From: an uncultured Clostridia bacterium
GTDB lineage: Bacteria > Bacillota > Clostridia > Christensenellales > QALW01
Direction: 5' to 3'
Length of the DNA: 64,000 nucleotides
NCBI GenBank assembly: GCA_934434555.1
Contig: CAKRZX010000013.1
Span: 608-64,607, forward strand
Part shown: positions 7,322 through 28,731 of the stretch, one piece after another
Layout: each line of letters begins with the position of its first letter
Numbering within the stretch: the first letter of the stretch is position 1
The notes under the pieces: generated by a model
Database searches by the model: none
Told to the model about the DNA's origin: nothing
What the model saw: the letters and a program-made list of their open reading frames with translations, nothing else
Program-made: the position numbers and the translations under genes

Positions 7322-7426
7322 CAGCGGCTCACCTCCGCCCTTAACCTTGAAAGTTCAAGATTTTTTGTAAGGGTACAAATACCAACCTAAAAAGGCTAAA
7401 AAATCTTTTTTATAGTCCTCCCACAG

Positions 7427-7824: not shown

Positions 7825-7853
7825 TTGAAATTTAGTAAAAATTGGTGTAAAAT
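7825..7853 (+). promoter_or_regulatory. Candidate sigma-A promoter reading toward the 19-bp repeats and the integrase gene
   Basis: TTGAAA, a 17-nt spacer, then TG-extended TAAAAT. Confidence 0.4.
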
Positions 7854-7889
7854 ACATATACAAACAAAAAGATACAATCAGAACAGAAC

Positions 7890-7908
7890 TTTCGCAGAGT
7901 TCGTCACT
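7890..7908 (+). repeat. 19-bp repeat copy A (TTTCGCAGAGTTCGTCACT)
   Basis: Exact 19-mer, also present at 7993-8011 and inverted at 9423-9441. Confidence 0.9.
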
Positions 7909-7992
7909 AAGCGGATTGCACTGCAAGAGATCTGTTTTGTTTTTTTGTGTCAAAGCCTGTCGAAATCCGTCAAAACTCCGTAAATCAGGGCT

Positions 7993-8011
7993 TTTCGCAG
8001 AGTTCGTCACT
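7993..8011 (+). repeat. 19-bp repeat copy B
   Basis: Exact copy. Identity with inverted copy C extends to 20 bp. Confidence 0.9.
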
Positions 8012-8232
8012 CAACGAAAACGCAACATCTCTTACAAATCAATCCAATTATATCACAGCACTTTCAAAAAGGCAACCAAAATTTAGAAAAAAACAGAAAA
8101 TTTTTTCGTGAATCGGATTTGTGTATGTTGAAAGGGGGTGTTTTACAGCGATTTAAGGCGGCGGAATGTATCTGTGCAGTCAAATGCGCAGTCATGATAC
8201 ATATTTTCTTTTTGAAAAAAGGAGGATTTAAG

Positions 8233-9339
8233 ATGTCAAAAGGAGAGAACATTTTCAAAAGAAAAGACGGGCGTTGGGAAGCCAGGTATACCAAAGGATA
8301 TGAAATTTCGGGTAAGATAAAATACGGTTATTGCTACGGTAAAACTTATAAAGAGGCAAAGGACAAGGTTACAAAAATTAAGGCGGCGATAATAAACGGC
8401 ACGCCGACGGAGAATTCGCGGCGCAGATTTTCCTATTACTGCGACCTGTGGCTAAAAGACAGAAAAATATCGGTGCGGGAAGCGACTTACGTTAAGTATT
8501 CAGCGGTGGTAAAAAAGCATATTCTGCCGCGGCTCGGCGGCTGTTTCACCGCGGGAATCAACGAACCGGTGATAAACGCGTTTACCGACGAACTTCTTGA
8601 AACCGGACTTAAAGCAAAAACCGTACACGATATTCTTGTTATCCTTAACGGAATAATCCGCTTTGCGTCGGTTTCGTTTGCGGGCGTTTTTCCTCAGGTG
8701 AAAATTACGTATCCCAAAGAGAAGAAAAAGGAAATGCGCGTGCTTACGCGGGAAGAACAGGAAAGGTTTGTTGCGTACCTTTCCAAGGACGGGGACCCCT
8801 GTAAGTTCGGGGTGCTGCTTGCGCTTTACACGGGAATCCGCATAGGCGAACTGTGCGCGCTGAAATGGTCGGATATTTCACAAAAGGACGGCACGCTGTG
8901 CGTAAATTCCACTATGCAGCGCCTGTACGATACAAGCGAAAATTCCGGGAGCAAAACGCGCGTTGTTATGGGCGACCCGAAAAGCGACACGTCCGCAAGG
9001 GTGATACCCCTTACGGGACAGGCTGTATCTATGTGCGAAAAGATGAATCCCGGCGACGGCGACGCATTTGTTTTAACGGGGACGCATTTTTATATGGAGC
9101 CGCGTCTTTTGCAGTACAGAATAGAAAAATACACGCGGGATTGCGGGCTTGACGGCGTGCATTGCCACACGCTCCGCCACACATTTGCCACCCGCGCGGT
9201 GGAAGTGGGCTTTGAAATTAAATCGCTTTCGGAAGTTTTGGGGCACGCAAACACAACCATTACCCTTGAACGGTATGTGCATTCGTCAATGGAATTTAAA
9301 AGGAACAATATGAGTAAACTTGCCGCCGCGGGATTTTAA
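8233..9339 (+). CDS. Tyrosine recombinase/integrase with N-terminal AP2-like arm-binding domain
   Basis: ATG at 8233 follows AAAGGAGG. The N-terminal RKDGRWEARY motif is present. C-terminal catalytic motifs: TGIRIGELCALKW, HTLRHTFATR, LGHANTTITLERYVH. Confidence 0.9.
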   Translation: MSKGENIFKRKDGRWEARYTKGYEISGKIKYGYCYGKTYKEAKDKVTKIKAAIINGTPTENSRRRFSYYCDLWLKDRKISVREATYVKYSAVVKKHILPRLGGCFTAGINEPVINAFTDELLETGLKAKTVHDILVILNGIIRFASVSFAGVFPQVKITYPKEKKKEMRVLTREEQERFVAYLSKDGDPCKFGVLLALYTGIRIGELCALKWSDISQKDGTLCVNSTMQRLYDTSENSGSKTRVVMGDPKSDTSARVIPLTGQAVSMCEKMNPGDGDAFVLTGTHFYMEPRLLQYRIEKYTRDCGLDGVHCHTLRHTFATRAVEVGFEIKSLSEVLGHANTTITLERYVHSSMEFKRNNMSKLAAAGF

Positions 9340-14108: not shown

Positions 14109-17100
14109 TTGACTATGATTAAATCACATTCCGGCTTTGTTAAAGCCGTTGCACTGCTTCTGTGCGCGGCGGTAATTATTACGTCTTTCTGCCTCGGAAA
14201 CATCGGGCTCGTGGCAGAAGCGGAGGGAGAAACCGTTACAATAACGGTCAATTATGTATACGAATCAAATAATGCAATGGTGGCACAGCCGTATCGTGCG
14301 CAGATTGCAAAGAATACGGAATTCGTTAAAAGTATTGAAGTGCCGAAATTGCTGAATTATTCGATACCGAGTGATTTGGCAGAGGGACTTAGTGAAAACG
14401 TTACGCTTAATCAGGACGCAGATACAAAAAAGTATACGCTGGCATTTAACATCAATTCTGCTGAAAGCGATATTACGGTTACCCTCTACTATGTGGCGGG
14501 AACGGCAAAGTATACGGTGTATCACTATTATCAGAACCTTGAAAATGATAAGTATGATGATGAAGAACCGAAGATTATTGAACTTGTAGGAGATATTGAT
14601 GCATACACAGAGGCTGTTGCAAACAACAAGCCCGGCTACCACTGCAAAGGTATTCCTCAAACAACAGTTGCGGCGGACGGCACAACTACGGTTGAAATCT
14701 ACTATGACCGCGATTATTATACGGTTATATTTGATGTAAACGGCGGTATAAATGGCCCCGAGCCCATATACGCAAGATACGGAACACAGTTTCAGGCAAA
14801 AGATATAATTGAGCCGACGCGTAAGGGATATACATTCCTTGGGTGGACGCCTGTTTTGTCAGATACGGTTACCATTGAAGACAATACAACATATGTCGCA
14901 CAGTGGCAGCCCGAAAAGGGTCAGGCAGACTACAGTATTGTTATTTGGGGACAGAACGCTAACGATGACGAGTACTCATATCTTGGTTCCAGCGATGCTT
15001 GGGGCAATGTGGGCAAAGATATTACTTGGAATGAAAGTACGCTTATAAGCCACGTGCATGCCGATGAGTGCCGGAAACTTACGTGCGACAAAGAGGAGCA
15101 TACACATGATGCAAAGTGTTATACGTGCAGCCATGTACACGGCTTGACTTGCTACGGTTTAAATGCAAACAGTACGAGTACTAACCCAAATGATAATACT
15201 GCATGGTGGAATAGCAGTAAACCCGAAACCTATTTCGAGGCATTGGGAATTGAAGACGGATATCTTTATTATGACGATGAGAATGCGGCAGTTCTTTCAA
15301 AAGATAACTACTATTTTAGATTCAACGGAAAATACTATTCTATTGATGAATCTCTTTTCAATAAATTAAAAGGAGATGAAGTCGGCAAAACCGATGATGG
15401 AACTTCACGATACACTGACTATTACTATAAGTACAGTATAAATCAAGCAGGTATGTCCTGTACCCATACACATACTGATGATTGTTATTCATGCGGCAAA
15501 GCGGAACACACTCACGATTCTTCTTGCTTTAAACTTGTATGCGGGTTAAAAGATACACCTAAACAGTATATGAAAGATATCAAACCGTCCGATAGTTTAT
15601 GGAAGTTTGAAAGAAGCGATACTGTAACGGTTAATGCTGATGGTACATCAGTGTTAAATGTGTACTTCAAAAGAAAAGAGTTCACACTTGAATTCCGTAA
15701 GCAGTATTCTAACAGCAATGACTACGGCACAATTAAAGCGCGATGGGGTAAGAACATAGATTCAGAATACAAAGCGGTTGTTGAAAGAGCCGGAGGAGAT
15801 AATTTTTGGAGTAAAAATAAGGATGCAAGCAATCCATGGACAAACTACATCGGTGTGATGCCACAGGAGAATATCACCTATTATAACTATGTGCCCAATG
15901 GTAGTGGTAAGAGCACAATGACTTATTATGGCCAAGATTTGAACGATAGTTATCAGATAATATTTTCAGTCACGTTCAAAGGAACGAACTTAACAGTTAC
16001 TGATGAAGACCGTTATCAGTTTGAGGGATTCATTTACGACCATGGAACAAATAATGGGGCAAATTGTGACGGAGCAGAATTCTACTACAACCGCAAACTT
16101 TATAAACTGGAATTCTATTCAGTATCAGCCAGCGTGCTTGATAAATCCAAAGATGTGAAGTATCAGGATTCATTGAGTCAATATGATTACATACCGACAA
16201 ATAAGCCTGAAACGGTTGAAAAAGATGCTGTGTTTGCGGGGTGGTATCAGAACCCGCAATGCACAGGCGAAAGATACGACCTTGCAAGCCATATAATGCC
16301 GTCAAACAACATATCGCTTTATGCAAAATGGGTAAACGGATTGTATACGGTAACTACCTATACCGATGAAACTATGAAAGAACTTTATACATATGACGGT
16401 TACAGCGGAATTCAGAGAGATATAGAAAAATATACTCTTGCAAGCGAGCCTACGGCACCCAAAAAGGACGGCTATGTTTTTGTGGGCTGGTTCTATAAAG
16501 ACGGAGATGCGGAAAAACTTTTCTCGTTTACAATGACGATAACAAGAGATTATGACCTGTATCCCAAGTTTTCAGAGCCAACATATCTTAACTATACTGT
16601 TCATTACTATATTAAGAACACAACAACGAAAGTTGCCGAAGACAAAGAAAGTACGGCACTGGTAGGAACAACGGTTACCGAAAAGGCGAAAATGGGTTCA
16701 GAATTAAATCTTGTTTTGCCAGATATGCGGAGCAAGTATTTCCCGGATAAAACAAGCACAAGCGTAAAAATAGACAAAGAGGGTATAGAAATTATTTTCT
16801 ATTACAAAGAGGCAACAAAGGTTAAATACACAGTTTATTATCAGGATGAAAACGGAAACGACTTGCACGAGCCGAAATACGAGGAAACAGACCTTTCGGT
16901 TGTGACGGAGGAGTATATTCACATTGATAATTATTCGCCGATTCAGTATCAAATTGAACTGGCTTTGTCAACCGATGAAGAATCAAACATAATTATATTT
17001 GTTTATAAACCTATGTTTTCCACCCTCACAATCCAAAAATCCGGCAGTGAGGATATAGACGAAAATCAGACGTTTATCTTCCGCGTTAAGGGTAAGGATA

Positions 17101-17351
17101 CGGATGAAAACACGAAGAACATCGACCTGACCGTAACGGTGCACGGAAACTCACAGACAACCGTTTCCGAACTTCCCGTTGGCGAGTATACGGTTGAAGA
17201 AGTTACTTCCTGGTCGTGGCGGTATACACCCGACGAAATCAAAAAGACCGTTGATGTGGTTGCCGGAGGTTCGTCTGTTTTGTTTAAAAATGAACGAACA
17301 GAAGATAAATGGCTTAACGGCGACAATTACAGTGTAAACATCTTCAAGTAA
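14109..17351 (+). CDS. Large secreted multidomain adhesin-like protein (MucBP-like modules, Listeria-Bacteroides repeats, two Cys/His clusters, C-terminal SpaA/CnaB-like Ig domain); no LPXTG
   Basis: It has an ordinary signal peptide (..VAEAEGE). Repeat signatures include YTFLGWTP, FAGWYQNPQCTG and YVFVGWFYKDG. The C-terminus reads TLTIQKSGSEDIDENQTFIFRVKG..LPVGEYTVEEV. There is no sorting signal at the end. Confidence 0.8.
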   Translation: MTMIKSHSGFVKAVALLLCAAVIITSFCLGNIGLVAEAEGETVTITVNYVYESNNAMVAQPYRAQIAKNTEFVKSIEVPKLLNYSIPSDLAEGLSENVTLNQDADTKKYTLAFNINSAESDITVTLYYVAGTAKYTVYHYYQNLENDKYDDEEPKIIELVGDIDAYTEAVANNKPGYHCKGIPQTTVAADGTTTVEIYYDRDYYTVIFDVNGGINGPEPIYARYGTQFQAKDIIEPTRKGYTFLGWTPVLSDTVTIEDNTTYVAQWQPEKGQADYSIVIWGQNANDDEYSYLGSSDAWGNVGKDITWNESTLISHVHADECRKLTCDKEEHTHDAKCYTCSHVHGLTCYGLNANSTSTNPNDNTAWWNSSKPETYFEALGIEDGYLYYDDENAAVLSKDNYYFRFNGKYYSIDESLFNKLKGDEVGKTDDGTSRYTDYYYKYSINQAGMSCTHTHTDDCYSCGKAEHTHDSSCFKLVCGLKDTPKQYMKDIKPSDSLWKFERSDTVTVNADGTSVLNVYFKRKEFTLEFRKQYSNSNDYGTIKARWGKNIDSEYKAVVERAGGDNFWSKNKDASNPWTNYIGVMPQENITYYNYVPNGSGKSTMTYYGQDLNDSYQIIFSVTFKGTNLTVTDEDRYQFEGFIYDHGTNNGANCDGAEFYYNRKLYKLEFYSVSASVLDKSKDVKYQDSLSQYDYIPTNKPETVEKDAVFAGWYQNPQCTGERYDLASHIMPSNNISLYAKWVNGLYTVTTYTDETMKELYTYDGYSGIQRDIEKYTLASEPTAPKKDGYVFVGWFYKDGDAEKLFSFTMTITRDYDLYPKFSEPTYLNYTVHYYIKNTTTKVAEDKESTALVGTTVTEKAKMGSELNLVLPDMRSKYFPDKTSTSVKIDKEGIEIIFYYKEATKVKYTVYYQDENGNDLHEPKYEETDLSVVTEEYIHIDNYSPIQYQIELALSTDEESNIIIFVYKPMFSTLTIQKSGSEDIDENQTFIFRVKGKDTDENTKNIDLTVTVHGNSQTTVSELPVGEYTVEEVTSWSWRYTPDEIKKTVDVVAGGSSVLFKNERTEDKWLNGDNYSVNIFK

Positions 17352-17363
17352 GGAGGCGGCAAA

Positions 17364-17918
17364 ATGAAAAACAGAAAAATTACGGCATTGATTATTTCGC
17401 TGCTTCTTGTGCTTGTGCTGGGCGCGGGCGCGACACTTGCTTATATTCTCACTAAGACGGACGCAAAGCAGAATACTTTTACTCCGGCGGTCGTTTCGTG
17501 CGAGATTACCGAAACGTTTAACGGCAGCACAAAATCGAACGTAAAAATCAAAAACACGGGAAACACGGGAGCGTATATCCGCGCAAAAATCGTTGTTTCC
17601 TGGGCAAAGGATAATGCGGACGACGAACAAACCGTTTCGGCGGTTGTTCCGAAGGAAAAAGTTGATTATGTGATTGCGATTGACGAGGAAAAATGGATTA
17701 AGGGCAGTGACGGGTATTACTATTTTAAGAATCCCGTTGCCATGAACGGAGAAACCGACGCGCTTATTTCTTCCTGTGCGCTTGCCGAAAACGCAAAAGT
17801 GCCCGAGGGATATCACCTTTCAGTTGAAATAATTGCTTCGGCGTTGCAGAGCACACCCGCAGATGCCGTAAGAGACACTTGGGGCGTGACAATCGCAGAC
17901 GAAATTTCAAAGGGGTGA
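17364..17918 (+). CDS. TasA/camelysin-like protein with SipW-type signal (paralogue 6)
   Basis: AGATLAYILTKTDAKQNTFTPAVVSCEITE and KIKNTGNTGAYIRAKIV are present. Confidence 0.8.
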   Translation: MKNRKITALIISLLLVLVLGAGATLAYILTKTDAKQNTFTPAVVSCEITETFNGSTKSNVKIKNTGNTGAYIRAKIVVSWAKDNADDEQTVSAVVPKEKVDYVIAIDEEKWIKGSDGYYYFKNPVAMNGETDALISSCALAENAKVPEGYHLSVEIIASALQSTPADAVRDTWGVTIADEISKG

Positions 17919-17923
17919 AGATA

Positions 17924-18562
17924 ATGAAGAAAAGAATTTTCGGCTTTCTTGCTGCGGCGGTAATGATTGCTGTTTGCTCACTTACCGCGTTTGCCCACGG
18001 CACCGTCACATATGACGGAAGCGCAAAGGATTTCATTTTCGCCCCGGGAAGCGAATATTCGCCTACCGACCTATTTACCGACTTCAAAAACGTTATGCCC
18101 GGCGATTCGGTAACGCAAAAAGTAACGGTAAACAACAGGATAGACAAAAATGTAAAAATCAAAGTGTATGTGCGCTCACTGGGCGCGGAAGAGGGGTCGG
18201 AAGAGTTTTTATCAAAACTGAACCTTACGGTAAAACAGGAGGGCAACTCAAAACTGTTTGCCGCGCCCGCCGACCAAACGGCGCAACTTGCCGACTGGGT
18301 TTATCTCGGCACGATATATTCCGGCGGTAAAATAGACCTGGACGTTACTCTTGATGTTCCCATTGAACTTGAAAACCGCTTTCAGGACGCAATAGGATAT
18401 CTTGATTGGGAGTTCAAGGTTGAAGAACTTCCGGTGGAAAAGAACGACCCCAAACCTTTGGGCGACGCACCGCAATATCTGCTTTACGGCGTGCTTATCG
18501 GCGCGGTTGTGCTTATGGTTATTGTTCTTGTTGCCGTTCGCCGCCGCAGACAGGACGACTGA
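17924..18562 (+). CDS. TasA-like body with ordinary signal peptide and C-terminal TM anchor (paralogue 7)
   Basis: ATG at 17924. The signal reads ..SLTAFAHG. NVMPGDSVTQKVTVNN resembles paralogue 5. The C-terminus is KPLGDAPQYLLYGVLIGAVVLMVIVLVAVRRRRQDD. Confidence 0.7.
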   Translation: MKKRIFGFLAAAVMIAVCSLTAFAHGTVTYDGSAKDFIFAPGSEYSPTDLFTDFKNVMPGDSVTQKVTVNNRIDKNVKIKVYVRSLGAEEGSEEFLSKLNLTVKQEGNSKLFAAPADQTAQLADWVYLGTIYSGGKIDLDVTLDVPIELENRFQDAIGYLDWEFKVEELPVEKNDPKPLGDAPQYLLYGVLIGAVVLMVIVLVAVRRRRQDD

Positions 18563-18564
18563 AA

Positions 18565-18843
18565 ATGAGCATATTTAACAGAATGTTCAAAAATCGGGGG
18601 GGGGCAGACCCTTTGGATAAAGATAATCTGCCCGAAAGAACGATTGAAAATTGCGTTCTGTGCGGCAAACCCACTCCGTATTTTTCCGATACGCCCGTAA
18701 ATATGCGTAAGTTTTATATTTCGGGCGCGGGACAACTCTGCAAAGAGTGCTACGCGGAAACGGTATTCGGCAGCCGCCACGAAACCGATATGAGCGACGG
18801 CGAACTGATGTATTTAATTGAATTGTGCAGGCAGAAAACATAA
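18565..18843 (+). CDS. Small zinc-ribbon-like protein (CxxC..CxxC)
   Basis: The ORF starts 3 nt after the preceding stop. CVLCGK...CKEC are present. Confidence 0.5.
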   Translation: MSIFNRMFKNRGGADPLDKDNLPERTIENCVLCGKPTPYFSDTPVNMRKFYISGAGQLCKECYAETVFGSRHETDMSDGELMYLIELCRQKT

Positions 18844-19049
18844 TGGAATTTATTGCTGAAAACAAAAGAGTGGATATTAAACGCTGTCACCTTTGCACAA
18901 GGCTTGATTTAAGGGACTGCAATTCCTGTAAAGACGGGCTTGTGTGCGAAAACGGCAACTGCGATTCGTTTGAGCCGGTAAAAAAGGAAAACATAACGGT
19001 ACGTATCGGCTGTCTGATTGAAAAAATAGGCATATGCATGGGGAAGTGA
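18843..19049 (+). CDS. Small Cys-rich protein
   Basis: TAATG overlap with the preceding ORF. The 68-aa product has nine Cys (CHLC, CNSC, C..C). Confidence 0.45.
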   Translation: MEFIAENKRVDIKRCHLCTRLDLRDCNSCKDGLVCENGNCDSFEPVKKENITVRIGCLIEKIGICMGK

Positions 19050-19055
19050 AACGAA

Positions 19056-19280
19056 ATGGACTTGTTTGAATATATCCGTACACTTTTGGGCTGTGAGTAT
19101 ATTTCGGATATCCGCTTGCCCGAAAACCGCACTCTTGCGCGCAGAGTGTTTTCGAGAATAAACCTTTCCTGGTACACCCAAAGGGAAATCGATGATATGA
19201 AAGAGTATTTGGGAATATCCCGCTGCAAAAAGGAGAAAACAACAGGCGAAACAAGTAAAGCGCCGAGTTTGGCACAATAA
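19056..19280 (+). CDS. Small hypothetical protein
   Basis: Co-directional ORF followed by the terminator at 19311-19345. Confidence 0.4.
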   Translation: MDLFEYIRTLLGCEYISDIRLPENRTLARRVFSRINLSWYTQREIDDMKEYLGISRCKKEKTTGETSKAPSLAQ

Positions 19281-21221: not shown

Positions 21222-21479
21222 TCTTTTCTACCTCCGATTTTTATTATCGGCATTAAAAATCGGCAATGCCTAACCGCCGTTCTGTTTTCTTTCATTCTAC
21301 ATACGCTGGTATTATAATTCCAAAACTCACGTGATTCAAGACTTTTTTTGATTATTTCAAGACAAAAATTGCGCAAAATGATTATAAATGAGCGATAACG
21401 GACAAAAGTTGCGGAAAATTTCCGAAAACGGCGAAGCAGCAAAAAAAACAGCCTGTTCGTGTATGTGAACAGACTGTTT

Positions 21480-21524
21480 TGGTGGGTCATCGGGGGTTCG
21501 AACCCCGGACACCCTGATTAAGAG
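21480..21524 (-). repeat. attL: displaced 3' 45 nt of tRNA-Lys
   Basis: Exact 45-bp identity with 28649-28693. Confidence 0.9.
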
Positions 21525-21537
21525 GGAATAATTTGCA

Positions 21538-22140
21538 TTATTTATTATTTTTGTATTCTTTCATTAGGCCTGTTATTTTCTTTTTATATGCATTGTGTGA
21601 CCGTCTGTTTTGTGGATAGTTTCTTAGTATGTCTATATAATACCAAATTGGATTCATTCCTTTTGATTCGTTTATTGCTATTTTTATCGAGTCTTTTAGA
21701 TTTCTTCCTACTATTACTCTGCATATGTATGTTGTTGTTTCGTTTTTTTCGTTGAATTCCGTGTGCGTCCATACATCTATATTTCTTACTTTCCCTGTTT
21801 TAGAAGTAGACCATCCAAAATCTCTATAACTTGTCCTTGTTCTATTTTTTACGTATTCATTTATCAATTCAGTTATTTTCTTTTTATATGCTCTATCGGT
21901 TCGCCTGTTTTGTGGATAGTTTCTCAGTACGTCTAGATAATACCAAATTGGGTTCATTCCTTTTGATTCATTTACCGCTATTTTTATAGATTCTTTCATA
22001 TTCCTTCCCACTATTACTTTACATGTGTATGTCGTTGTTTCATTTTCCTCGTCCACCTGTGTTCTGGTTATTACGTCTATGTTTCTTACTTTCCCTGTTC
22101 TCGAAGTAGACCATCCAAAATCTCTATACGTTGTTCTCAT
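21538..22140 (-). CDS. Hypothetical protein made of two tandem ~100-aa repeats (prophage accessory gene)
   Basis: The two halves are roughly 80 percent identical (YRDFGWSTS.TGKVRNIDV...NETTTY.C.VIVGRN...NESKGMNPIWYY..LRNYPQNRR). Confidence 0.7.
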   Translation of the reverse strand: MRTTYRDFGWSTSRTGKVRNIDVITRTQVDEENETTTYTCKVIVGRNMKESIKIAVNESKGMNPIWYYLDVLRNYPQNRRTDRAYKKKITELINEYVKNRTRTSYRDFGWSTSKTGKVRNIDVWTHTEFNEKNETTTYICRVIVGRNLKDSIKIAINESKGMNPIWYYIDILRNYPQNRRSHNAYKKKITGLMKEYKNNK

Positions 22141-22148
22141 TTTACCTC

Positions 22149-22439
22149 CTATTTATTATTTATTGTTATATTTTTTGAAGAAGTAATAACTTGTTTGTTT
22201 TTATAATGTTCTTGGCCGTGCAGTTTTTTTGGTTCATCAGTCAGTCCTAGTATATAATCAGCGGAAACATTATATATTTTACACAAGATTATTAAATCTT
22301 CTATTTGCAATTTTGCATTGTCATTTTCAATATGTGCGTATCCCTGTTGTGACCTATTAAGTATTTTTGCAATATCTTTTTGTTTAAGGTCATGGTCTTC
22401 GCGTAACTCTCTGATTATTGTTTGATATGTTTTTTTCAT
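22149..22439 (-). CDS. XRE family repressor (prophage cI-like)
   Basis: The HTH is LKQKDIAKILNRSQQGYAHIEND. It is divergent from the structural genes. The MKKTYQ start is preferred over the listed upstream start. Confidence 0.8.
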   Translation of the reverse strand: MKKTYQTIIRELREDHDLKQKDIAKILNRSQQGYAHIENDNAKLQIEDLIILCKIYNVSADYILGLTDEPKKLHGQEHYKNKQVITSSKNITINNK

Positions 22440-22479
22440 ATTACACCCCAACTATATTATATAATAAAAAAAATTATTC

Positions 22480-22536
22480 TTGACTTTTACTCAGAAGTTG
22501 AGTATAATCTACTTGTATTTACTCAATATTTGAGTA
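22480..22536 (+). promoter_or_regulatory. Rightward prophage promoter with two palindromic operators
   Basis: TTGACT, 17 nt, TATAAT. TACTCAGAAGTTGAGTA (22488-22504) overlaps the -10 element. A second operator TACTCAATATTTGAGTA lies at 22520-22536. Confidence 0.65.
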
Positions 22537-22560
22537 TAAAGTTTAAGAAAGCAGGAGCAG

Positions 22561-22698
22561 ATGATGAGTGATTTTATCTTAAAGTTAATATTAGGCGTAT
22601 CGGTAGCAGGATGTTTAGGCGCGGTATCCGCTCTTTGTGATATCGGAGTAAGGTCCATGTTGAATAAGAAAGCGGAGCAAAAAGATAAAAAGGCTTGA
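22561..22698 (+). CDS. Small 45-aa hydrophobic ORF
   Basis: ATG follows GCAGGAG and it is the first ORF after the promoter. It is below the ORF-track cutoff. Confidence 0.3.
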   Translation: MMSDFILKLILGVSVAGCLGAVSALCDIGVRSMLNKKAEQKDKKA

Positions 22699-22745
22699 AG
22701 GATTTTCGAATCCATAAAATAAAAAAACAGAGAGGTAAAGAAGCA

Positions 22746-23114
22746 ATGAAAGTAAAAAAGCAAGAGAAGGACATAAGGCAGTTTATAGTGCTGCGACCCG
22801 TAGGTTTCAATGAATTGGTAGACATTGACCTGCACGACTTCAACCACGACGTGTACCGTGCGCTTGACATTGAATGTTATGAGCACGTCCACATCGGCTC
22901 GGTCAACGGAGTAGACCTGCATATGTTGGTAGACGAAATCGGCGCACTGAATAATAGTCGGCTGAATCCGGAAGCAACATATTTGTACGGTCGCAACATT
23001 TTCGGCAGCGTGCTTTTGTGCACAACGCTGCAACTCAGGAACGGCGAAGAAATCTTTGCACCGTTTGATGGCAGCGAGTTTATAAAAATGTGCAGCATAT
23101 TTTTAAGGAGGTAA
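22746..23114 (+). CDS. Hypothetical prophage protein (122 aa)
   Basis: ATG follows GAGAGGTAAAG. It lies in the co-directional module. Confidence 0.55.
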   Translation: MKVKKQEKDIRQFIVLRPVGFNELVDIDLHDFNHDVYRALDIECYEHVHIGSVNGVDLHMLVDEIGALNNSRLNPEATYLYGRNIFGSVLLCTTLQLRNGEEIFAPFDGSEFIKMCSIFLRR

Positions 23115-23120
23115 GTAAAA

Positions 23121-23378
23121 ATGAAAGTCAGACTTAAAGTAGTAGACCAGAAAGAGTATCTTGATGAGAAGAAGCAGCCGAAAGGCTACGGCGTGGTGTT
23201 TACCACGAATTTCGGCGAGCGCATCAGCGCGTATGTTAACCCGGAAGAAACGGAGTTGCTGAACAAGTACGCACCGGAAACGGTTCACATACTTGATTTG
23301 TACGCATACAAAGGTTCTGACGGAGTTGCCCGATTGGGTGTCCGGCTGGAACGCGAATTAAATGAAGTAGTATTTTAA
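23121..23378 (+). CDS. Hypothetical 85-aa protein at the position of an inovirus ssDNA-binding protein
   Basis: RBS AAGGAGG. Its size and its position immediately before the coat gene fit; there is no motif evidence. Confidence 0.45.
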   Translation: MKVRLKVVDQKEYLDEKKQPKGYGVVFTTNFGERISAYVNPEETELLNKYAPETVHILDLYAYKGSDGVARLGVRLERELNEVVF

Positions 23379-23441
23379 GTTAAATTCGCCATGCGCGCGG
23401 CGTGTTTATAATCCCAAAAATAAAGGAAAGGAGGATTATAT

Positions 23442-23657
23442 ATGCCTATTGCTAACTTTGTAGCCGCCGAAGGAGCGGCAAGCGCAACGCTTACACAGAT
23501 ACTTGCTGATATCGGTACATTTTTTACCGCAGCGATTGGCTGGCTCGGCACGGCACTTGATACCGTGGTTGGCTCGCCGGTTCTGTTTGTTATGGTTATT
23601 GCAATACCCGTTTCGATGGTTGCAATTGCCTTGCTCAGAAGGCTTATCAGTCTTTAA
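23442..23657 (+). CDS. Candidate major coat protein (71 aa, TM helix, basic C-terminus)
   Basis: Strong RBS AAAGGAGG. The N-terminus is Ala-rich, followed by a hydrophobic helix and an RRLISL tail. Confidence 0.6.
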   Translation: MPIANFVAAEGAASATLTQILADIGTFFTAAIGWLGTALDTVVGSPVLFVMVIAIPVSMVAIALLRRLISL

Positions 23658-23680
23658 TCTAAAAATAAGAGGTGCATTTT

Positions 23681-24856
23681 ATGAAGAAATTAAAGCGTCA
23701 CGTTCGAGGTCTTGTATTCGTTTTAGTTTTCGGAATACTTTGCACCTCTAATTTTTTAGTGAACGCGAAGTCGGAAACGGTTTCGTTTTCTGTTTTTGAT
23801 AAAAATGCAATGCGATTTGTTACGCAGCGTATGGACGGCAGTTTTTTTACTAATGAGACTGTCGGCGGTAATACTATAACTCGCCTTGCTAATGCTACTC
23901 GTTTTACTAACGGTGCAGAATTTTATACTACGTCTCAGGATGATACTATTGCTTGTTTATGGGTCTTTACTGACCCGACTGCGGTTGACTCTCCTGTTTA
24001 TTCGTTGGTTGGATATAAAGGCTGTACGGTGAATTTTAGTGTTACTTATACAGTTACTCCCCGTTCTTATGATTCATCCGGTAATTATATTGCTGACGGT
24101 ACTACCTTTGAATTTTTGAAAGATTCTAATTCTGTCGCAAAATACTTTGCTTTTTATTCTCGCCCCGATTGGACGGTTTACACTGATTCTAATGCAACCG
24201 CTAAAAAGGTTCATTTGTTTTTATCGAATTATAAACGTACTGCTCAGATTGTTGTTGAATATTCTTTTACTATTCCGTCTGATACGTTTAATATATACGG
24301 CTTTACTTCGTCTGTCGGTCGGCCAAACGATTCCGGCTCTCTTGACCTTGATGAAAAATGGAAACTTGGTGTCAACCGTGCATATTACGGTTTTTCTGCT
24401 ACGTTTTCGGACATTACCGTTGAAAGTCTGACTGCGGCCGACAAAGATTATGCCTCTCCGGCAACCACGCCGAACATAGAACCGGCGGTTGATGATATGG
24501 GCACGATAGACCAGAATATGACTGACTATACAAAGCAGGCTAATGATTATCTCACAAACGGCGCGTCAAACCTGTCTTCATATATTAAAACAATCAATCA
24601 TCCCTGGACACGTGCGTTTACTTTTATAACTGAGATGTTTAACAAGGTAATTAAGTTCGAACCGTTGCAGATTATATTGCTTATGAGTTCGATAATCGGT
24701 TTAATGGGCCTTTTGTTTGCCGGCTGGCAGTTGCCTGTTTCGCAAAGCAAGGTTGACCGTGTTGCCGATGCAGCGTACCGGCGCGGATATGACCGAGGAT
24801 ACAGTGTTGGCAATGAACGGTCGTATCGAGACTCGGCAGACATTCGGAGGCGTTAA
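23681..24856 (+). CDS. Candidate minor coat/adsorption protein (pIII-like)
   Basis: It has a signal peptide, a C-terminal TM helix (IILLMSSIIGLMGLLFAGW) and a basic tail. It is the largest structural ORF. Confidence 0.55.
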   Translation: MKKLKRHVRGLVFVLVFGILCTSNFLVNAKSETVSFSVFDKNAMRFVTQRMDGSFFTNETVGGNTITRLANATRFTNGAEFYTTSQDDTIACLWVFTDPTAVDSPVYSLVGYKGCTVNFSVTYTVTPRSYDSSGNYIADGTTFEFLKDSNSVAKYFAFYSRPDWTVYTDSNATAKKVHLFLSNYKRTAQIVVEYSFTIPSDTFNIYGFTSSVGRPNDSGSLDLDEKWKLGVNRAYYGFSATFSDITVESLTAADKDYASPATTPNIEPAVDDMGTIDQNMTDYTKQANDYLTNGASNLSSYIKTINHPWTRAFTFITEMFNKVIKFEPLQIILLMSSIIGLMGLLFAGWQLPVSQSKVDRVADAAYRRGYDRGYSVGNERSYRDSADIRRR

Positions 24857-24858
24857 TT

Positions 24859-25104
24859 ATGTTTGTTACTTTAACATTTTGGGACAGCGTTATATCTTTC
24901 TTTGATAACATCTGGGAATTTTTTCAGATGTGCGGTCAAATGATTGTTGGCTTTGTAAATACGTTGCTTAATTTCGTGCAGATGATAGGTGTAGCATTTA
25001 AGGTACTGCCTTTGTTGCAGATGATAATCCCCGGCTTTATTTATGCTGCCATTGTCGCATTTGTTTGTGTCGGCATTGTCCGGTCTATAATTGCGAAAGG
25101 ATGA
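24859..25104 (+). CDS. Small membrane protein (pVI-like position)
   Basis: 81 aa with two hydrophobic helices. Confidence 0.5.
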   Translation: MFVTLTFWDSVISFFDNIWEFFQMCGQMIVGFVNTLLNFVQMIGVAFKVLPLLQMIIPGFIYAAIVAFVCVGIVRSIIAKG

Positions 25105-25108
25105 TGGT

Positions 25109-25282
25109 ATGCTTAATTTTTGGGATTGGCTCTTTCAGCGTTTCGGCGAAGCGTTTCAATTTATGAATTCCGTATCGTTTGAAACGTCTTTGGGCGTTAA
25201 AGTATATTTAGGATGGATAGCCGTTGCATTCTTTACGCTGTCCATTATCATTTCAGTATTTTGGAAAGGTGGTAGAGGTTAA
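25109..25282 (+). CDS. Small membrane protein
   Basis: ATG follows GAAAGGATG. One TM helix. Confidence 0.4.
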   Translation: MLNFWDWLFQRFGEAFQFMNSVSFETSLGVKVYLGWIAVAFFTLSIIISVFWKGGRG

Positions 25283-25466
25283 TGGTGATACTTCCCTGTT
25301 TGCAGATATTTCTTAATGGCAGCCATTATATCTGCTATGTTTTCCTTTTGGCTTTTGTGTTTTTCTTGTTGCGGAAGGTGATTAAAGGATGAACTTAACC
25401 GTGTTTTGGCTTATGGGCATATTTGTAGTAATGTGCCTTAACATATTTATGCGAGGTGATTAAATA

Positions 25467-25664
25467 ATGCAAACCGTTCTTGAAGCGCTCCGGCAGATTC
25501 TCGGAGTTCCTGATTTTTATAAAATCCTCCCCAGTAGCAGCTCCGGTTATCAGAATTATTCCTGGGATTATGCTGCTATGATTGAATATCTCGTCGGCGC
25601 TCTGATTTTGCTTTGTGTGGTTGCAAATGTGTTCAAACTTTTAAGATGTTTGTTTTCAAAGTAA
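25467..25664 (+). CDS. Small membrane protein
   Basis: RBS GAGGTGA. It has a C-terminal TM helix and is followed by the hairpin GCCGGCAAC/GTTGCCGGC. Confidence 0.45.
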   Translation: MQTVLEALRQILGVPDFYKILPSSSSGYQNYSWDYAAMIEYLVGALILLCVVANVFKLLRCLFSK

Positions 25665-25704
25665 AGCCGGCAACACGTTGCCGGCGTGGTGAAAGGATTA
25701 AGTT

Positions 25705-26349
25705 ATGATTAGATATTTTGTAGGAGTGCCGGGCTCCGGAAAGACTACCCTGGCATGTCGTCTTTTAAGAAAAAACATAAAGCCCTTTATTAAACTCAGT
25801 AAGAATCCATATAAATATAACTTTGCAAACTTCGATAACAAACTTGCTAATGTTATTGACCTGTCTCTTTTGGCAACACAGAAACTTCCCCCCGGTTCTT
25901 ATCTGGCAATAGATGAATCAGGCATAGAATTTAACGCCCGAGGATTCAAAACTTTGCCGATGGGATTCATTGAATTCTTTAAGATGCACCGGCACGAACA
26001 CTGCGATATAGATATCTTCTCGCAGACCTGGGATGATACGGACAAGCAGATACGTGACCTGGCGTCTGAAATATGGCTGATAAAGAAAGTCAGACCCCTT
26101 TCATACGCACGGTGCGTGTATAAGCGCGTAGGAATAGACGAAGTCACCCACCAGTTGCAGTACCAGCACTTCTTCCGCAGCGTGTTTATGCAGTTGCTGC
26201 CTTTTATGCCGAAGCAGTTCATCTTCTGCTGGCGCCCGACTTACTATCGATATTTTGATTCATTCGCGCCGATGAACCGCCCCGTCATTGCAAGAGATGT
26301 TAAAGGCAAAGAGTTTGAGCCCATTGACACGTTCAGCATAGCACGTTAG
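25705..26349 (+). CDS. Zot/pI-like P-loop assembly ATPase
   Basis: Walker A GVPGSGKT, Walker B YLAIDESG and HRHEHCDIDIFSQ match the Zot N-terminal domain pattern. Confidence 0.75.
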   Translation: MIRYFVGVPGSGKTTLACRLLRKNIKPFIKLSKNPYKYNFANFDNKLANVIDLSLLATQKLPPGSYLAIDESGIEFNARGFKTLPMGFIEFFKMHRHEHCDIDIFSQTWDDTDKQIRDLASEIWLIKKVRPLSYARCVYKRVGIDEVTHQLQYQHFFRSVFMQLLPFMPKQFIFCWRPTYYRYFDSFAPMNRPVIARDVKGKEFEPIDTFSIAR

Positions 26350-26752
26350 CCCCATATATAATATTGCCGGCCGTGCCGGCACGTTATTGTAATGCAGAAT
26401 CCGGGCGCAAGACCGGTTCGGACGACCGGAAGCGATAAAAAGAAAGACAATTACCGACGCCCGGATACTTTCAAGAGATGTTCGACCTGAACCGCATAAG
26501 CAGGTCAGCATCGTTAAATAAAGACAGCGACTCCACAAGCGCCGACAAGCCGATAAAGGCAATAGACGTATACGCGAAGTCGTTCAGGTCATTTATGCGT
26601 GCACAGGTGCCTGAAAACCCGCCACAAAAAGGTGCGGGGCCTTCGTGCATAAAAACCCGCCCGCAGGCGAAAAAACAAAACGGAGCACACGCTCCGTCGA
26701 GGGTACGAACTGTAATTACGTACCCTACGCTGACAGATTGGAGAAAATCGAT

Positions 26753-27868
26753 ATGCACAATCAGATAATCGTAGATTACATTGCTTTTACTCTTCGTAAT
26801 GATAGTCTTACGGAACTTGTCGGAGACGCAAAGGAACTTCACACGATTTTGGAGCGCTTCTGCGAAAAGTATTGCAATCCGCTTAACGAATATATCGGCG
26901 GACATATGTATACCCACGGATACATATCTTCCTCCGGCTTCCGCACGTATTACGGCGGCGAACATGTAGGCAACACCCTTTTTGTTCAGATATCCGGCGC
27001 AGGCTGCGTACAGTTGGACCAACACTTCAAAGGCGGATTGCAAGCGTTTTTGCAGTTGCTCAACCGTTACAACGTCAAGATGAAGCGTCTTGACCTTGCC
27101 GCCGATGAAATAGGTACGGAAACCGAAAGTGATGAATATTGCCTTAGCATTGACCGTGTGGTTGGGCATCTGGATGCAGGTCTGGCAACGGGTTCTGCAC
27201 GTTCTTTTACCGCCCTGGGCGCAAAAACAATTGCAACCGGCAAGCGAAAATCCGGTGCAACCGTGTATATCGGCAACCGCAAGTCTGATGTGTTTATGCG
27301 TATATATGATAAATTCTCCGAGCAAAAGTTACAAGGCAGTGGTCACTGGATGCGTTGCGAGCTGGAACTTCACGGCGATGCAGCACAAAAGGCATTCAAA
27401 TGCCTTGTTGACACGTCTGACGGCTACCGTGAGCGCATAACCGAACTTTACCGCGGCTTATGTTTGGGCTTAGTGCGCTTTATCAAAGAGCGCAAAAGTA
27501 ATGTAACCCGTTCCGAAACCGTGGATTGGTGGACAGACTTCCTCGGCGGTTGCACTGTCGGTATACGCTTTACCCAGGAAAAAGAGCATAAAACCCTCAA
27601 TTCCCTTATGGATTGGGTTGACCATAGCGTGCTGGGTGCGCTGAACGTAATTTATAACACATACGGTTTCCCCTATTTAATCAGGCTGATGAACAGTTTT
27701 GTTGCTGCGGGACGTCTTTCGGCAGCGCACCGAAATATGATAGTTGAGTTCGAGCGCGAAGCAGCACGAATGCGAGGTGAAGACCTTGAATGTTATGACT
27801 GCGTTGAACCTATTTCTTCGGGAACAGGTGCACAGGAACAATTCACCGGCAACGTTGAGGTATTATAG
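26753..27868 (+). CDS. Rolling-circle replication initiator (Rep_trans / RstA-like)
   Basis: ATG follows TTGGAG. IVDYIAFTL, RLDLAADE, VYIGNRKSDVFMRIYDK and MRCELELHG are present. Confidence 0.8.
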   Translation: MHNQIIVDYIAFTLRNDSLTELVGDAKELHTILERFCEKYCNPLNEYIGGHMYTHGYISSSGFRTYYGGEHVGNTLFVQISGAGCVQLDQHFKGGLQAFLQLLNRYNVKMKRLDLAADEIGTETESDEYCLSIDRVVGHLDAGLATGSARSFTALGAKTIATGKRKSGATVYIGNRKSDVFMRIYDKFSEQKLQGSGHWMRCELELHGDAAQKAFKCLVDTSDGYRERITELYRGLCLGLVRFIKERKSNVTRSETVDWWTDFLGGCTVGIRFTQEKEHKTLNSLMDWVDHSVLGALNVIYNTYGFPYLIRLMNSFVAAGRLSAAHRNMIVEFEREAARMRGEDLECYDCVEPISSGTGAQEQFTGNVEVL

Positions 27869-28619
27869 CGAATGCATAGCGATGTTTACCGCGCTTATTG
27901 ATAAACCGATGAACGAATACACCATAGACGATGTTTTTGAATTCCTGGACGTTCTCCGTAACCGCGGCAACACTTCCGGAAGTGTCAACACGCGCTACCG
28001 TGCGCTGCGTGCATTCTTCAAGTGGGCAGCAACAAAACAGTATTGTGCCGATATATTCGACGGCGTCAAAATGCCGAAAAGCACCCGCAAGATTATTCGT
28101 ATTCTTTCAGGTGATGAAATCCGCACATTGGTGAACGCCGTGTCAGGCCGCAACCGTTTAATAATTCTGCTTATGCTGGACTGCGGTCTCCGGCGCTCTG
28201 AGGTTTGTTCCCTCAGGTGCGAAGACGTTAAGGAAAACTACTTTACCGTGCGCGGCAAGGGAGACAAGGAACGCATCGTACCGATGAGTGACTATATCAA
28301 ATTGCCTATGCTTGAATACCTCATTTACGCAAAGAGCAAAAATCAGGGGTGTCTGCTAAACGTCTCCGGCAACGCAATAAAAATGCTGTTTCGAAAACTG
28401 AAAAAGGAAACCGGCATTGAACGGCTGCACCCGCATTTACTGCGGCATACTTTCGCCACGCTTTACCTGGTTAACGGCGGCGACCCGGTAAGCCTTCAAT
28501 ATATTTTAGGGCACGAAAGCCTTGAAATTACGAAAGTTTATCTTCATCTTGCGCAGACGTATGTTTTCCGCTCCGGCAACAAGTTTTCACCTATGATGCA
28601 CCTTGATAAAATGAAATAA
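27795..28619 (+). CDS. Tyrosine recombinase (XerC/D-like phage integrase)
   Basis: DCGLRRSEVCSLR, HPHLLRHTFAT and LGHESLEITKVYLH are present. It overlaps the rep 3' end and is adjacent to attR. Confidence 0.85.
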   Translation: MTALNLFLREQVHRNNSPATLRYYSECIAMFTALIDKPMNEYTIDDVFEFLDVLRNRGNTSGSVNTRYRALRAFFKWAATKQYCADIFDGVKMPKSTRKIIRILSGDEIRTLVNAVSGRNRLIILLMLDCGLRRSEVCSLRCEDVKENYFTVRGKGDKERIVPMSDYIKLPMLEYLIYAKSKNQGCLLNVSGNAIKMLFRKLKKETGIERLHPHLLRHTFATLYLVNGGDPVSLQYILGHESLEITKVYLHLAQTYVFRSGNKFSPMMHLDKMK

Positions 28620-28620
28620 A

Positions 28621-28646
28621 AAGCACTTCCGATAAGAAGTGCTTTT
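28621..28646 (+). terminator. Hairpin after the integrase gene
   Basis: AAGCACTTC-N6-GAAGTGCTT followed by TT. Confidence 0.5.
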
Positions 28647-28648
28647 CG

Positions 28649-28724
28649 TGGTGGGTCATCGGGGGTTCGAACCCCGGACACCCTGATTAAGAGTCAGGTG
28701 CTCTGCCAGCTGAGCTAATAACCC
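28649..28724 (-). tRNA. tRNA-Lys (anticodon CTT), CCA encoded
   Basis: The reverse complement folds as a cloverleaf: GGGTTAT acceptor stem, anticodon loop CTCTTAA, T-arm CGGGG-TTCGAAC-CCCCG. Its 3' 45 nt form attR. Confidence 0.9.
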
Positions 28725-28731
28725 AAAAAAA

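Follow-up and report, generated by a model that had tools for sequence, protein, structure and literature searches.

Does a run of mostly small genes, set between two copies of a 45-base-pair (bp) sequence beside a tRNA-Lys gene, represent a filamentous phage genome able to leave the chromosome, the residue of one, or a mobile element of another kind? The question is raised by a 64,000-nucleotide (nt) stretch of DNA from an uncultured Clostridia bacterium (contig CAKRZX010000013.1; the whole stretch is hereafter called the window). The initial annotation of this locus, made from the letters and a list of open reading frames (ORFs), described an intact-looking, inovirus-like prophage inserted with its own integrase into tRNA-Lys(CTT), and none of the in silico results reported here contradicts that description. 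We conclude that the element is very probably a temperate filamentous phage of inovirus type (Tubulavirales), integrated in the genome of an uncultured endospore-forming Clostridia bacterium of the human gut.

The boundaries of the element are marked by an exact 45-bp direct repeat at 21480-21524 and 28649-28693, with a start-to-start spacing of 7,169 bp. Its extent is 21480-28693 with both cores included, and it consists of one core and 7,124 bp of unique sequence (21525-28648). ARAGORN called a tRNA-Lys(CTT) at 28649-28724 on the minus strand, next to a tRNA-Gly(GCC), and Rfam agreed, reporting these two tRNAs and nothing else over 21.0-29.3 kb. The core is the reverse complement of tRNA-Lys positions 32-76; this part of the tRNA begins two bases before the anticodon and ends with the encoded CCA. 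At the left copy (21480-21524) no tRNA was called by ARAGORN, which identifies this copy as the displaced 3' part of tRNA-Lys. The repeat search and both tRNA searches therefore reproduce the coordinates given initially, as well as the assignment of the repeat to the tRNA-Lys 3' part, from the CCA end into the anticodon loop. The following features define the two ends:

21480..21524, no strand assigned: attL core, the displaced 3' 45 nt of tRNA-Lys, an incomplete tRNA (exact repeat, no tRNA call)
28649..28724, minus strand: intact tRNA-Lys(CTT), whose 3' 45 nt (28649-28693) form the attR core (ARAGORN, Rfam, repeat)
21445..21480, minus strand: host terminator hairpin, originally behind tRNA-Lys and outside the element (14 pairs and a T-run)
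28618..28647, no strand assigned: element-borne hairpin behind the tRNA-Lys 3' end and the integrase stop, a candidate replacement or bidirectional terminator (13 pairs and a T-run)

Comparison with unoccupied tRNA-Lys sites, which had been proposed as a check of the integration, was possible in four contigs of a sister lineage (L041, L042, L043 and L045), found via a 255-amino-acid (aa) variant of the left-flank AP-endonuclease-family gene. In these contigs the flanks join at a single core copy with nothing between them (identity to the window of 93% on the left and 97-100% on the right, tRNA-Gly/tRNA-Lys pair intact), and the match between the empty site and the window insertion is base-exact. 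In L041, the left flank with the host terminator lies directly behind tRNA-Lys, whereas in the window it is displaced by 7.2 kb. The element has therefore inserted as a discrete unit into the 3' part of tRNA-Lys(CTT), and the tRNA is made complete again by the copy of positions 32-76 that the element brings along. In a large inovirus survey (PMC6813254), an attachment site was defined as a direct repeat of 10 bp or more that lies in a tRNA or by an integrase; here the repeat has 45 bp and lies 30 nt from the integrase stop.

A different configuration was observed at the other Lys isoacceptor. Positions 8001-8450 of L036 (also L037 and L038) hold a tRNA-Lys(TTT), a hairpin identical to the element-borne one and a fragment of 114 aa from the C-terminus of an integrase; the stretch is 94% identical to window 28307-28727, has a sharp boundary and contains no second core copy. 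Its context differs from that of the window (TetR, collagen-repeat proteins, a five-tRNA cluster), and it is the deletion remnant of a related element. Except for the anticodon, the anticodon stem-loop is the same in the tRNA-Lys(CTT) and tRNA-Lys(TTT) targets.

Within these boundaries, the following gene was recognized as a filamentous phage assembly gene by profile, sequence and fold:

25705..26349, plus strand: pI/Zot-type morphogenesis ATPase, 214 aa, with Walker A GVPGSGKT and Walker B LAIDE (Pfam, PHROG, 2R2A)

Its product scores 28.8 bits against the Pfam Zot profile (PF05707, gathering score 20.3) and 4.7e-13 against PHROG 197 "Zot-like". The profile of its 23-member family, in which Walker A (GxxGSGKT) and Walker B (hhhhDE) are invariant, matches the N-terminal domain of Neisseria Zot (PDB 2R2A) at 2.3e-9, and 2R2A is also the best structural match (6e-7 over 183 columns) of the AlphaFold model, which has a predicted local distance difference test score (pLDDT) of 77.9. 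A match to a Zot/pI marker profile, on which the initial assignment had been made to depend, is thus in hand.

Evidence that the genes are maintained comes from L049, a 6.1 kb contig about 91% identical to the window element, which was used to estimate the ratio of non-synonymous to synonymous substitution rates (dN/dS). In the ten shared genes no gaps and no internal stops were observed, so that the frameshifts named initially as a sign of decay are lacking against this homologue, and dN/dS ranges from 0.04 to 0.26 per gene, with a pooled value of 0.09. All shared genes are under purifying selection, including the 36-aa gene orf36, with seven synonymous and no non-synonymous changes.

Ahead of the ATPase gene, the rightward operon, which continues through that gene and rep to the integrase gene, contains the ORFs listed below. 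Their starts, ribosome-binding sites (RBSs) and hydropathy were read from the sequence, and transmembrane (TM) segments were assigned by hydropathy; dN/dS values are against L049, and OB stands for oligonucleotide/oligosaccharide-binding:

22564..22698, plus strand: first gene of the operon, 44-aa protein with an N-terminal TM segment (hydropathy, RBS; dN/dS 0.13)
22746..23114, plus strand: 122-aa soluble protein in the position of the replication module (RBS; weak match to PHROG 22831; dN/dS 0.26)
23121..23378, plus strand: 85-aa beta-barrel OB-like protein in the gene V position (AlphaFold2 model; dN/dS 0.05)
23442..23657, plus strand: major-coat-type protein, 71 aa, no leader peptide (TM segment 35-71; dN/dS 0.06)
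23681..24856, plus strand: adsorption-type protein, 391 aa, with signal peptide, variable ectodomain, C-terminal TM anchor and basic tail
24859..25104, plus strand: 81-aa membrane protein, candidate for the tip complex, co-varying with the adsorption protein (TM segments; position conserved)
25109..25282, plus strand: 57-aa membrane protein (63 aa from TTG 25091) with a C-terminal FWKGG/A motif, co-varying with the adsorption protein (orf57; motif ...FWKGA(K/R)G at the C-terminus)
25282..25392, plus strand: 36-aa membrane protein of the M(V/I)ILPxLxxF family (RBS, TAATG overlap; absent from public gene calls; orf36 motif MIILPxLxxF)
25389..25463, plus strand: 24-aa membrane micro-protein MNLTVFWLMGIFVV (ATGA overlap, RBS; absent from public gene calls; orf24 motif MSxTVxWLMxIF)
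25467..25664, plus strand: 65-aa protein with a soluble N-terminal part and a C-terminal TM segment, directly upstream of the ATPase gene (dN/dS 0.06; orf65 motif MQTVLEALRxILGxPDFY...WDYGAMIEY)

The 71-aa coat-like TM protein and the tiny hydrophobic ORFs noted initially are present, with RBSs and start/stop overlaps. In the alignment of the 71-aa family, a core of about 55 aa has an acidic N-terminal half almost without K or R, a hydrophobic center and a C-terminus, GLLxRLIRL, that contains two basic residues; a leader peptide is lacking. The same charge layout is found in the major coats of the inoviruses Pf1, Pf3 and Ff, and by this analogy the protein is probably of the major-coat type. 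The gene is conserved in relatives, often as a tandem duplicate. For the adsorption-type protein, hydropathy segments at 8-30 and 326-351 agree with the signal peptide and the C-terminal anchor of the pIII-like protein proposed initially; the length of 392 aa does not stand, being 391 aa from ATG 23681 or 394 aa from a GTG. The AlphaFold2 model of the 85-aa protein (pLDDT 82.8) has five strands, and its Foldseek lists contain mostly single-stranded-DNA-binding (SSB) and OB folds, with best E values of 0.037 (PDB) and 0.003 (BFVD) and TM-scores of 0.3-0.6, none of them significant. Gene V protein was absent from the top 50 Foldseek matches, and a PDB sequence search also returned no match. From its fold class, size and position, the protein is a candidate single-stranded DNA (ssDNA)-binding protein.

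The small membrane genes of 81, 57, 36, 24 and 65 aa are joined via TAATG and ATGA overlaps. Gene calls on public contigs leave out those of 57-63, 36 and 24 aa, and the two smallest had only been proposed as unlisted candidates. When the 1 kb ahead of the ATPase gene was scanned for ORFs in 11 relatives, all five small membrane genes were recovered in unchanged order, and the orf57, orf36, orf24 and orf65 families could be recognized by the motifs listed above. The 36-aa gene has tblastn matches in L018, L021, L023 and L024 and further positional homologues, the 24-aa gene has same-position counterparts of 22-29 aa in L018-L025, L046, L048, L049 and the fecal bajarodino virus 44, and the 65-aa gene has tblastn matches in eight related loci. 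With such positional and sequence counterparts in about ten related elements, the ORFs at 25282-25392 and 25389-25463 are real genes. The proteins of 44, 71, 81, 57, 36, 24 and 65 aa have one TM-like segment each, the feature used in the survey cited above (PMC6813254) in the form of short proteins of 30-90 aa with a single TM domain.

The part of the element to the right of the ATPase gene contains the presumed replication and integration functions:

26350..26752, plus strand: structured intergenic region, 403 nt, presumed to hold the origin(s) and the packaging signal (ssDNA fold; function inferred)
26753..27868, plus strand: Rep_trans rolling-circle initiator, 371 aa (PF02486, PHROG 453, 4CIJ; dN/dS 0.10)
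27786..28619, plus strand: Xer-like tyrosine integrase, 274-277 aa, overlapping the 3' end of rep by 74-83 nt (Phage_integrase and SAM-like N-terminal domain)

As ssDNA, the intergenic region folds at -69.4 kcal/mol (z = -3.73), and none of 100 shuffled sequences was as stable, in agreement with its earlier description as structured; hairpins lie at 26365-26381 and 26656-26698. Short G+C-rich hairpins, with stems of the GCCGGC type, lie on either side of the ATPase gene (25666-25685 and 26365-26381). The Rep protein scores 120.2 bits against Rep_trans (PF02486), over profile positions 1-189 of 201, and matches the solved Rep_trans protein 4CIJ at 1.2e-8, so that the proposed family membership holds by profile and by structure-bearing homologue. 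Its RIYDK stretch stands opposite RFYEK of 4CIJ, and we take the tyrosine in it to be the catalytic one of the family. In three independent assemblies, contigs terminate or begin in a 9-base interval of rep (27011-27019) that has no notable sequence features; co-occurring variants that diverge there could be the cause.

The integrase matches the catalytic domain Phage_integrase (115 bits) and an N-terminal SAM-like domain. The XerC/D-like integrase of the initial annotation is confirmed as Xer-like, intact and adjacent to the attachment site, but it lies below every NCBIfam equivalog cut-off (XerC 157.6 against 335, XerD 135.6 against 330, XerA_Arch 187 against 220); by these scores it is a Xer-like phage integrase and an orthologue of neither XerC nor XerD. 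In public gene calls the integrase begins at 27882, so that part of the SAM-like domain is lost. A GAGGTG lies 5 nt ahead of the in-frame TTG 27786, and homologues align from residue 24 of the long ORF; from this spacing and alignment, the start is most likely TTG 27786 or ATG 27795, overlapping the end of rep. As had been stated, a secretin gene is absent: no ORF of the element matches one in the Pfam and PHROG scans. Capsid, terminase, portal, lysis and conjugation families were likewise not found in the 10 larger ORFs (Pfam, PHROG) or in the six re-scanned with NCBIfam.

The left arm contains a repressor, its operators and an accessory gene:

21538..22140, minus strand: accessory gene, 200 aa, two units of about 100 aa, 8 nt downstream of the xre stop and on the same strand
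22149..22439, minus strand: XRE-family repressor, 96 aa from ATG, with a GGGGTG RBS (HTH_3, PHROG)
22480..22536, plus strand: rightward promoter and operators O1/O2 (TTGACT-17-TATAAT, palindromes)

The repressor matches HTH_3 at 42.3 bits and PHROG repressor families 8/3/4, with weak similarity to the RstR family, and is 99.7% identical in L049. The sigma-70-like TTGACT-17-TATAAT at 22480-22508 is the best promoter match of the region (11/12). Two copies, and no more, of the palindrome TACTCA-N5-TGAGTA are present in the 64 kb, where 0.04 would be expected: O1 (22488-22504) lies within the promoter spacer and -10 region, and O2 (22520-22536) just downstream. A divergent promoter with two operators had been proposed for this site; the two palindromes on the rightward promoter bear this out, but its leftward half is not recognizable by consensus. 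The accessory gene consists of two 300-nt units about 82% identical to each other, which together with the HTH_3 match substantiates the proposed minus-strand pair of a tandem-repeat gene and an XRE repressor. Its G+C content is 31-34%, against 42-50% in the rest of the element. Pfam, PHROG and PADLOC gave no match to the 200-aa protein, which has a single homologue (101 aa, one unit) among 1.84 billion representatives and is thus an apparent orphan. Two other functions were considered for this arm and rejected. For a type II toxin-antitoxin pair, with XRE antitoxin and downstream toxin, the 200-aa partner belongs to no known toxin family (Pfam, PHROG, PADLOC), and the antitoxin-family similarity of the XRE protein is sub-threshold only (NCBIfam). 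For a defense role of the accessory and early genes, PADLOC gave generic helix-turn-helix (HTH) matches to the repressor only.

The comparison with L049 also revealed an exchange. Repressor and operators are 99-100% identical between L049 and the window, yet the block at 23.79-25.26 kb has no nucleotide similarity to L049 while retaining homology at the protein level: identity is 34% for the adsorption protein, whose signal peptide is unchanged, and 26% for each of the 81-aa and 57-aa proteins. The adsorption cassette has thus been exchanged between relatives that are otherwise 91-100% identical. The joint divergence indicates that the three genes move and diverge as a single cassette, and we take this as evidence that their products may form an adsorption tip comparable to the pIII-pVI tip of Ff phages.

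Relatives of the element were searched for in genomes and metagenomes. About 20 contigs, from Logan assemblies and from several metagenome projects on the human gut (Hadza samples among them), carry the element itself at this site with 100% identity. Relatives of the ATPase form about 30 clusters among 5.8 billion proteins, mostly on contigs of 2-8 kb, and an ATPase profile search of species-representative genomes gave 13 loci, all in Bacillota metagenome-assembled genomes (MAGs) or isolates (labeled Clostridiales, Acutalibacteraceae, Oscillospiraceae, Faecousia, Butyricicoccus, Eubacteriaceae and Bacilli). By tblastn, the genes of 71, 81, 63, 36 and 65 aa are conserved beside the ATPase gene, and Rep and the integrase vary. 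The elements L018-L026 (Clostridiales SIG404, Acutalibacteraceae, Oscillospiraceae, Faecousia) resemble the window element in an ATPase 41-62% identical to its own and in the retained block of coat, small TM and ATPase genes; they measure 5-6.5 kb, with direct repeats of 18-29 bp and, in most, a tyrosine integrase. They differ in attachment sites other than tRNA-Lys, in Rep/integrase modules that are different or undetectable by tblastn, in a coat gene that is often duplicated and in the lack of the 200-aa accessory gene. In IMG/VR, the element and its close relatives are nearly absent; a single-protein scan with the ATPase found nothing and an ATPase profile scan found two weak loci.

Several further observations concern these relatives. 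Direct repeats about 5-6.5 kb apart surround the ATPase gene in L019, L020, L023 and L025, with the common core ...CAACTATACAAAATGAATATT / ...CAATTATACAAAATATTCATT, which suggests a common non-tRNA attachment site for this sub-group; L018 and L046 have another common core, ...TTTTGCGAATAG. In L048 (Logan SRR32918213, 7,338 bp), the ATPase has a C-terminal TM domain, and an IS30-like HTH_38 + rve protein, a SprT-like protease and a REP_ORF2-G2P initiator stand in place of Rep_trans and the tyrosine integrase; replication and integration modules thus appear to be exchanged around a constant morphogenesis block. The small contigs L031, L046 and L048 have no convincing terminal overlap, with only 19 nt in L048. 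L005 and L008 looked like variants with another gene after Zot, and were rejected as truncated contigs with a spurious antisense ORF call that are 100% identical to the window; the apparently broken genes of L002 are due to scaffold N-gaps.

With respect to the host, the window contains a complete spoVAC-spoVAD-spoVAEB operon at 58308-60102 (SpoVAD 445 bits, cut-off 402), and the closest named SpoVAD, 69% identical, is from a "Clostridia bacterium" MAG. The operon and this match identify the host as an uncultured endospore-forming Clostridia lineage of the human gut; the Gram-positive spore-former named initially is thereby supported, the relatives being confined to Clostridia/Bacillota MAGs. 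Other regions of the window are also of a mobile or variable character. Two large serine recombinases (3221-4846 and 5684-7321, CcrB/XisF-like but sub-threshold) and a tyrosine recombinase (8119-9339) point to a second, unrelated mobile element at 3221-9339, near the left end. A block at about 14442-19225, adjoining the left flank of the prophage, contains several small ORFs and the gene for a 1,080-aa surface protein with Listeria-Bacteroides repeats (Flg_new); it is missing from the empty-attB sister contigs, which have GtrA, RecD2 and ProRS genes instead, and is a second strain-variable region. At 54623-55711, a 362-aa fusion joins an N-terminal XRE/RstR-like HTH to a NagK/ROK-like sugar-kinase domain.

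Taken as a temperate filamentous phage, the element could work as follows. In the lysogen, the repressor bound to O1 and O2 would silence the rightward operon, and the orphan 200-aa gene would be co-expressed with the repressor. Upon derepression, the integrase would recombine the two cores, probably in the anticodon loop, to release a circle of 7,169 bp. Rep would then nick an origin in the structured intergenic region and start rolling-circle synthesis of ssDNA, which the 85-aa OB-like protein may coat. Extrusion of the filament through the single membrane, for which a secretin is not needed, would be the task of the ATPase and of the coat, tip and small proteins inserted in the membrane, and the 391-aa protein with its two co-varying small partners would serve as the adsorption tip that sets the host range. 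From these components, we infer that the element can be induced and that it produces filamentous particles with ssDNA.

A number of observations weigh against this reading. The approximately 20 carrying contigs hold the element in the integrated state or end at the repeats, with no circular junction, also where they were reached via the integrase, the accessory gene or the flanking host gene; contigs ending at the repeats are uninformative on excision because assemblers break at a 45-bp repeat. Scans for attP/attL patterns (JGI metagenomes, IMG/VR) and for the operator pattern (IMG/VR) returned nothing, in collections that do not contain the element itself. No excisionase was recognized among the genes of the element, and no leftward promoter for the repressor was found by consensus in the promoter scan of the region. 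The coat, adsorption and small membrane proteins have no profile match (Pfam, PHROG, NCBIfam), and their roles are assigned from size, hydropathy, position and conservation; for the 85-aa protein, the fold-search support for ssDNA binding is not significant. The ATPase contains no TM segment, with a maximum 19-residue Kyte-Doolittle mean of 0.92 (hydropathy being the sole method used), whereas genuine pI proteins are required in PMC6813254 to carry one or two TM domains, N- or C-terminal; by that definition it would not count as pI.

The missing membrane anchor is a property of a larger group. Maximum hydropathy does not exceed 1.25 in any ATPase relative with 40% identity or more, nor in the bajarodino virus 44 Zot; two distant members (P0027 and P0028), at about 2.45, have kept a C-terminal TM domain. 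In the relatives, the 65-aa TM gene invariably directly precedes the ATPase gene, in many cases with its stop overlapping the ATPase start, and its product is the obvious candidate for a membrane partner of the ATPase. Since the protein is also present where the ATPase keeps its TM domain, it would be a partner and not a split-off piece. A wider proposal, which we put forward tentatively as possible rather than probable, is that the lineage represents a monoderm-adapted filament-export machine, in which an anchor-less soluble ATPase motor is recruited by the 55-65-aa protein of the orf65 family and four other small membrane proteins, including the micro-protein of 22-29 aa. Screens demanding a TM domain in pI would drop such ATPases, and, if the proposal is true, catalogues may list too few members of an entire clade of gut-associated Clostridia inoviruses.

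The same observations could be explained by a cryptic, non-producing prophage derived from an inovirus, functional until recently but no longer excising or assembling, and carried passively or kept for its accessory gene. Such a state would account for the exclusively integrated copies, the unrecognized excisionase and the ATPase without a membrane segment, and the deletion remnant at another tRNA-Lys indicates that decay occurs in this lineage. We nevertheless consider it unlikely, given that all 14 genes are intact, without stops or frameshifts against the relative and with a pooled dN/dS of 0.09, that the attachment cores are still identical across 45 bp, and that a TM-less ATPase is common to circular virome genomes, which are presumably packaged.

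A non-viral origin, namely an integrative mobilizable element or an integrated rolling-circle plasmid, would make the Rep_trans protein a MobT-like relaxase and would give the Zot-like ATPase and the small membrane proteins another purpose. Rep_trans proteins do serve also as plasmid initiators and MobT relaxases, Rep homologues occur in streptococcal satellite and prophage records, and a weak MobT match was obtained; its 46.5 bits are far under the cut-off of 600. The specifically Zot-type ATPase, the absence of a coupling protein or other conjugation gene in the Pfam and PHROG scans, and the occurrence of the same gene set in circular virome genomes classified as Inoviridae make this explanation highly improbable, as does the combination of a coat-type gene with an array of tiny TM genes, an inovirus signature (PMC6813254). 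Finally, breaks of some assemblies inside the element (about 27011-27019) and at the repeats might be attributed to an artefact or chimera joining phage and host DNA, but the junctions are 100% identical in independent assemblies from different assemblers and cohorts and the matching empty site is base-exact, which leaves this explanation practically negligible. An integrated temperate filamentous phage is the reading retained below.

The element is a well-delimited addition to a known group, not a new kind of element, and leaves the picture of inoviruses unchanged. Host, attachment site and complete gene map are known together for only a few filamentous phages of Gram-positive bacteria, and the element supplies all three. 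It adds an exact attB/attL/attR set, a repressor-operator switch, a corrected gene map with micro-ORFs, evidence of selection and a natural swap of the adsorption cassette, which marks the putative host-range determinants. It also offers a starting point for studies on the secretin-free passage of filaments across one membrane and a thick wall, on the partners of TM-less Zot-type ATPases, and for better detection of gut inoviruses in metagenomes.

Among known viruses, the closest counterparts by ATPase are fecal inoviruses. A tblastn search of the ATPase against 50,697 GenBank phage records gave 72 records at 27-36% identity, genomes of 5-8.5 kb from rodent, lemur and pig feces that are named or classified as inoviruses; a nucleotide search of the whole element against the GenBank phages gave one 107-bp match at chance level only. 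The best ATPase match is bajarodino virus 44 (PQ006153.1; Inoviridae), a circular genome of 6,530 nt in the same order as the window element: short Zot, Rep, small ORFs, an opposite-strand repressor, a 363-aa protein and tiny TM ORFs. Its tiny ORFs include a clear counterpart of the 24-aa micro-protein, a 29-aa ORF that starts MNLTVLLLMGIFVV, against MNLTVFWLMGIFVV in the window, and the gene for a TM mini-protein lies just upstream of its Zot gene. Together with the Dulem viruses and the porcine "Inovirus sp." genomes (MT1352xx-MT1353xx), it shares with the window element a Zot-type ATPase of about 200 aa without a TM segment. Unlike the window element, bajarodino virus 44 is a free circular genome whose record has no annotated integrase or tRNA attachment site; the integrase, the host lineage, the exact attB and the orphan accessory gene are what the window element adds. 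To judge from the sequences, these fecal viruses are too dissimilar to belong to the same genus. Relatives of Rep were found in the same virome genomes and in Ralstonia inoviruses, and also in streptococcal satellite and prophage records.

The temperate filamentous phages Pf4 and Pf5 of Pseudomonas have, as in the window, their own tyrosine integrase, a site of integration beside a tRNA gene and a repressor gene that diverges from the structural operon. They differ in the diderm host, secretin export, a pI with a TM segment and another type of initiator, and no sequence relationship to Pf-type inoviruses was found in the phage-database searches (nucleotide search of the element, tblastn of the ATPase). 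CTXphi and the Ff phages (M13/fd) are built from the same modules as the window element: initiator, ssDNA-binding protein, coat, adsorption protein, small caps and Zot/pI ATPase. The RstR protein of CTXphi is an XRE-type repressor. CTXphi uses the host XerCD at dif, whereas the window element has its own integrase at a tRNA; both CTXphi and Ff need an outer-membrane secretin, and their pI/Zot proteins, of 350-400 aa, have a TM segment and a periplasmic domain.

With inoviruses of monoderm hosts, the window element shares the lack of a secretin: this applies to Propionibacterium phage B5, Clostridium CAK1 and the Enterocloster and Hungatella inoviruses. None of these was among the ATPase tblastn matches in the phage collection or among the genome loci, and any kinship with them lies beyond these searches. 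That characterized Gram-positive inoviruses are few, as the initial annotation put it, is true in a weaker sense than implied. More than 10,000 inovirus-like sequences were catalogued by Roux et al. in 2019 (PMC6813254), including monoderm-restricted families and prophages with tRNA attachment sites, so that thousands of cryptic ones have been surveyed. The Enterocloster and Hungatella elements are, like that of the window, prophages of spore-forming gut Clostridia, and their inoviruses were reported in 2023 to be secreted in vitro and in vivo (Burckhardt et al., PMC10061712).

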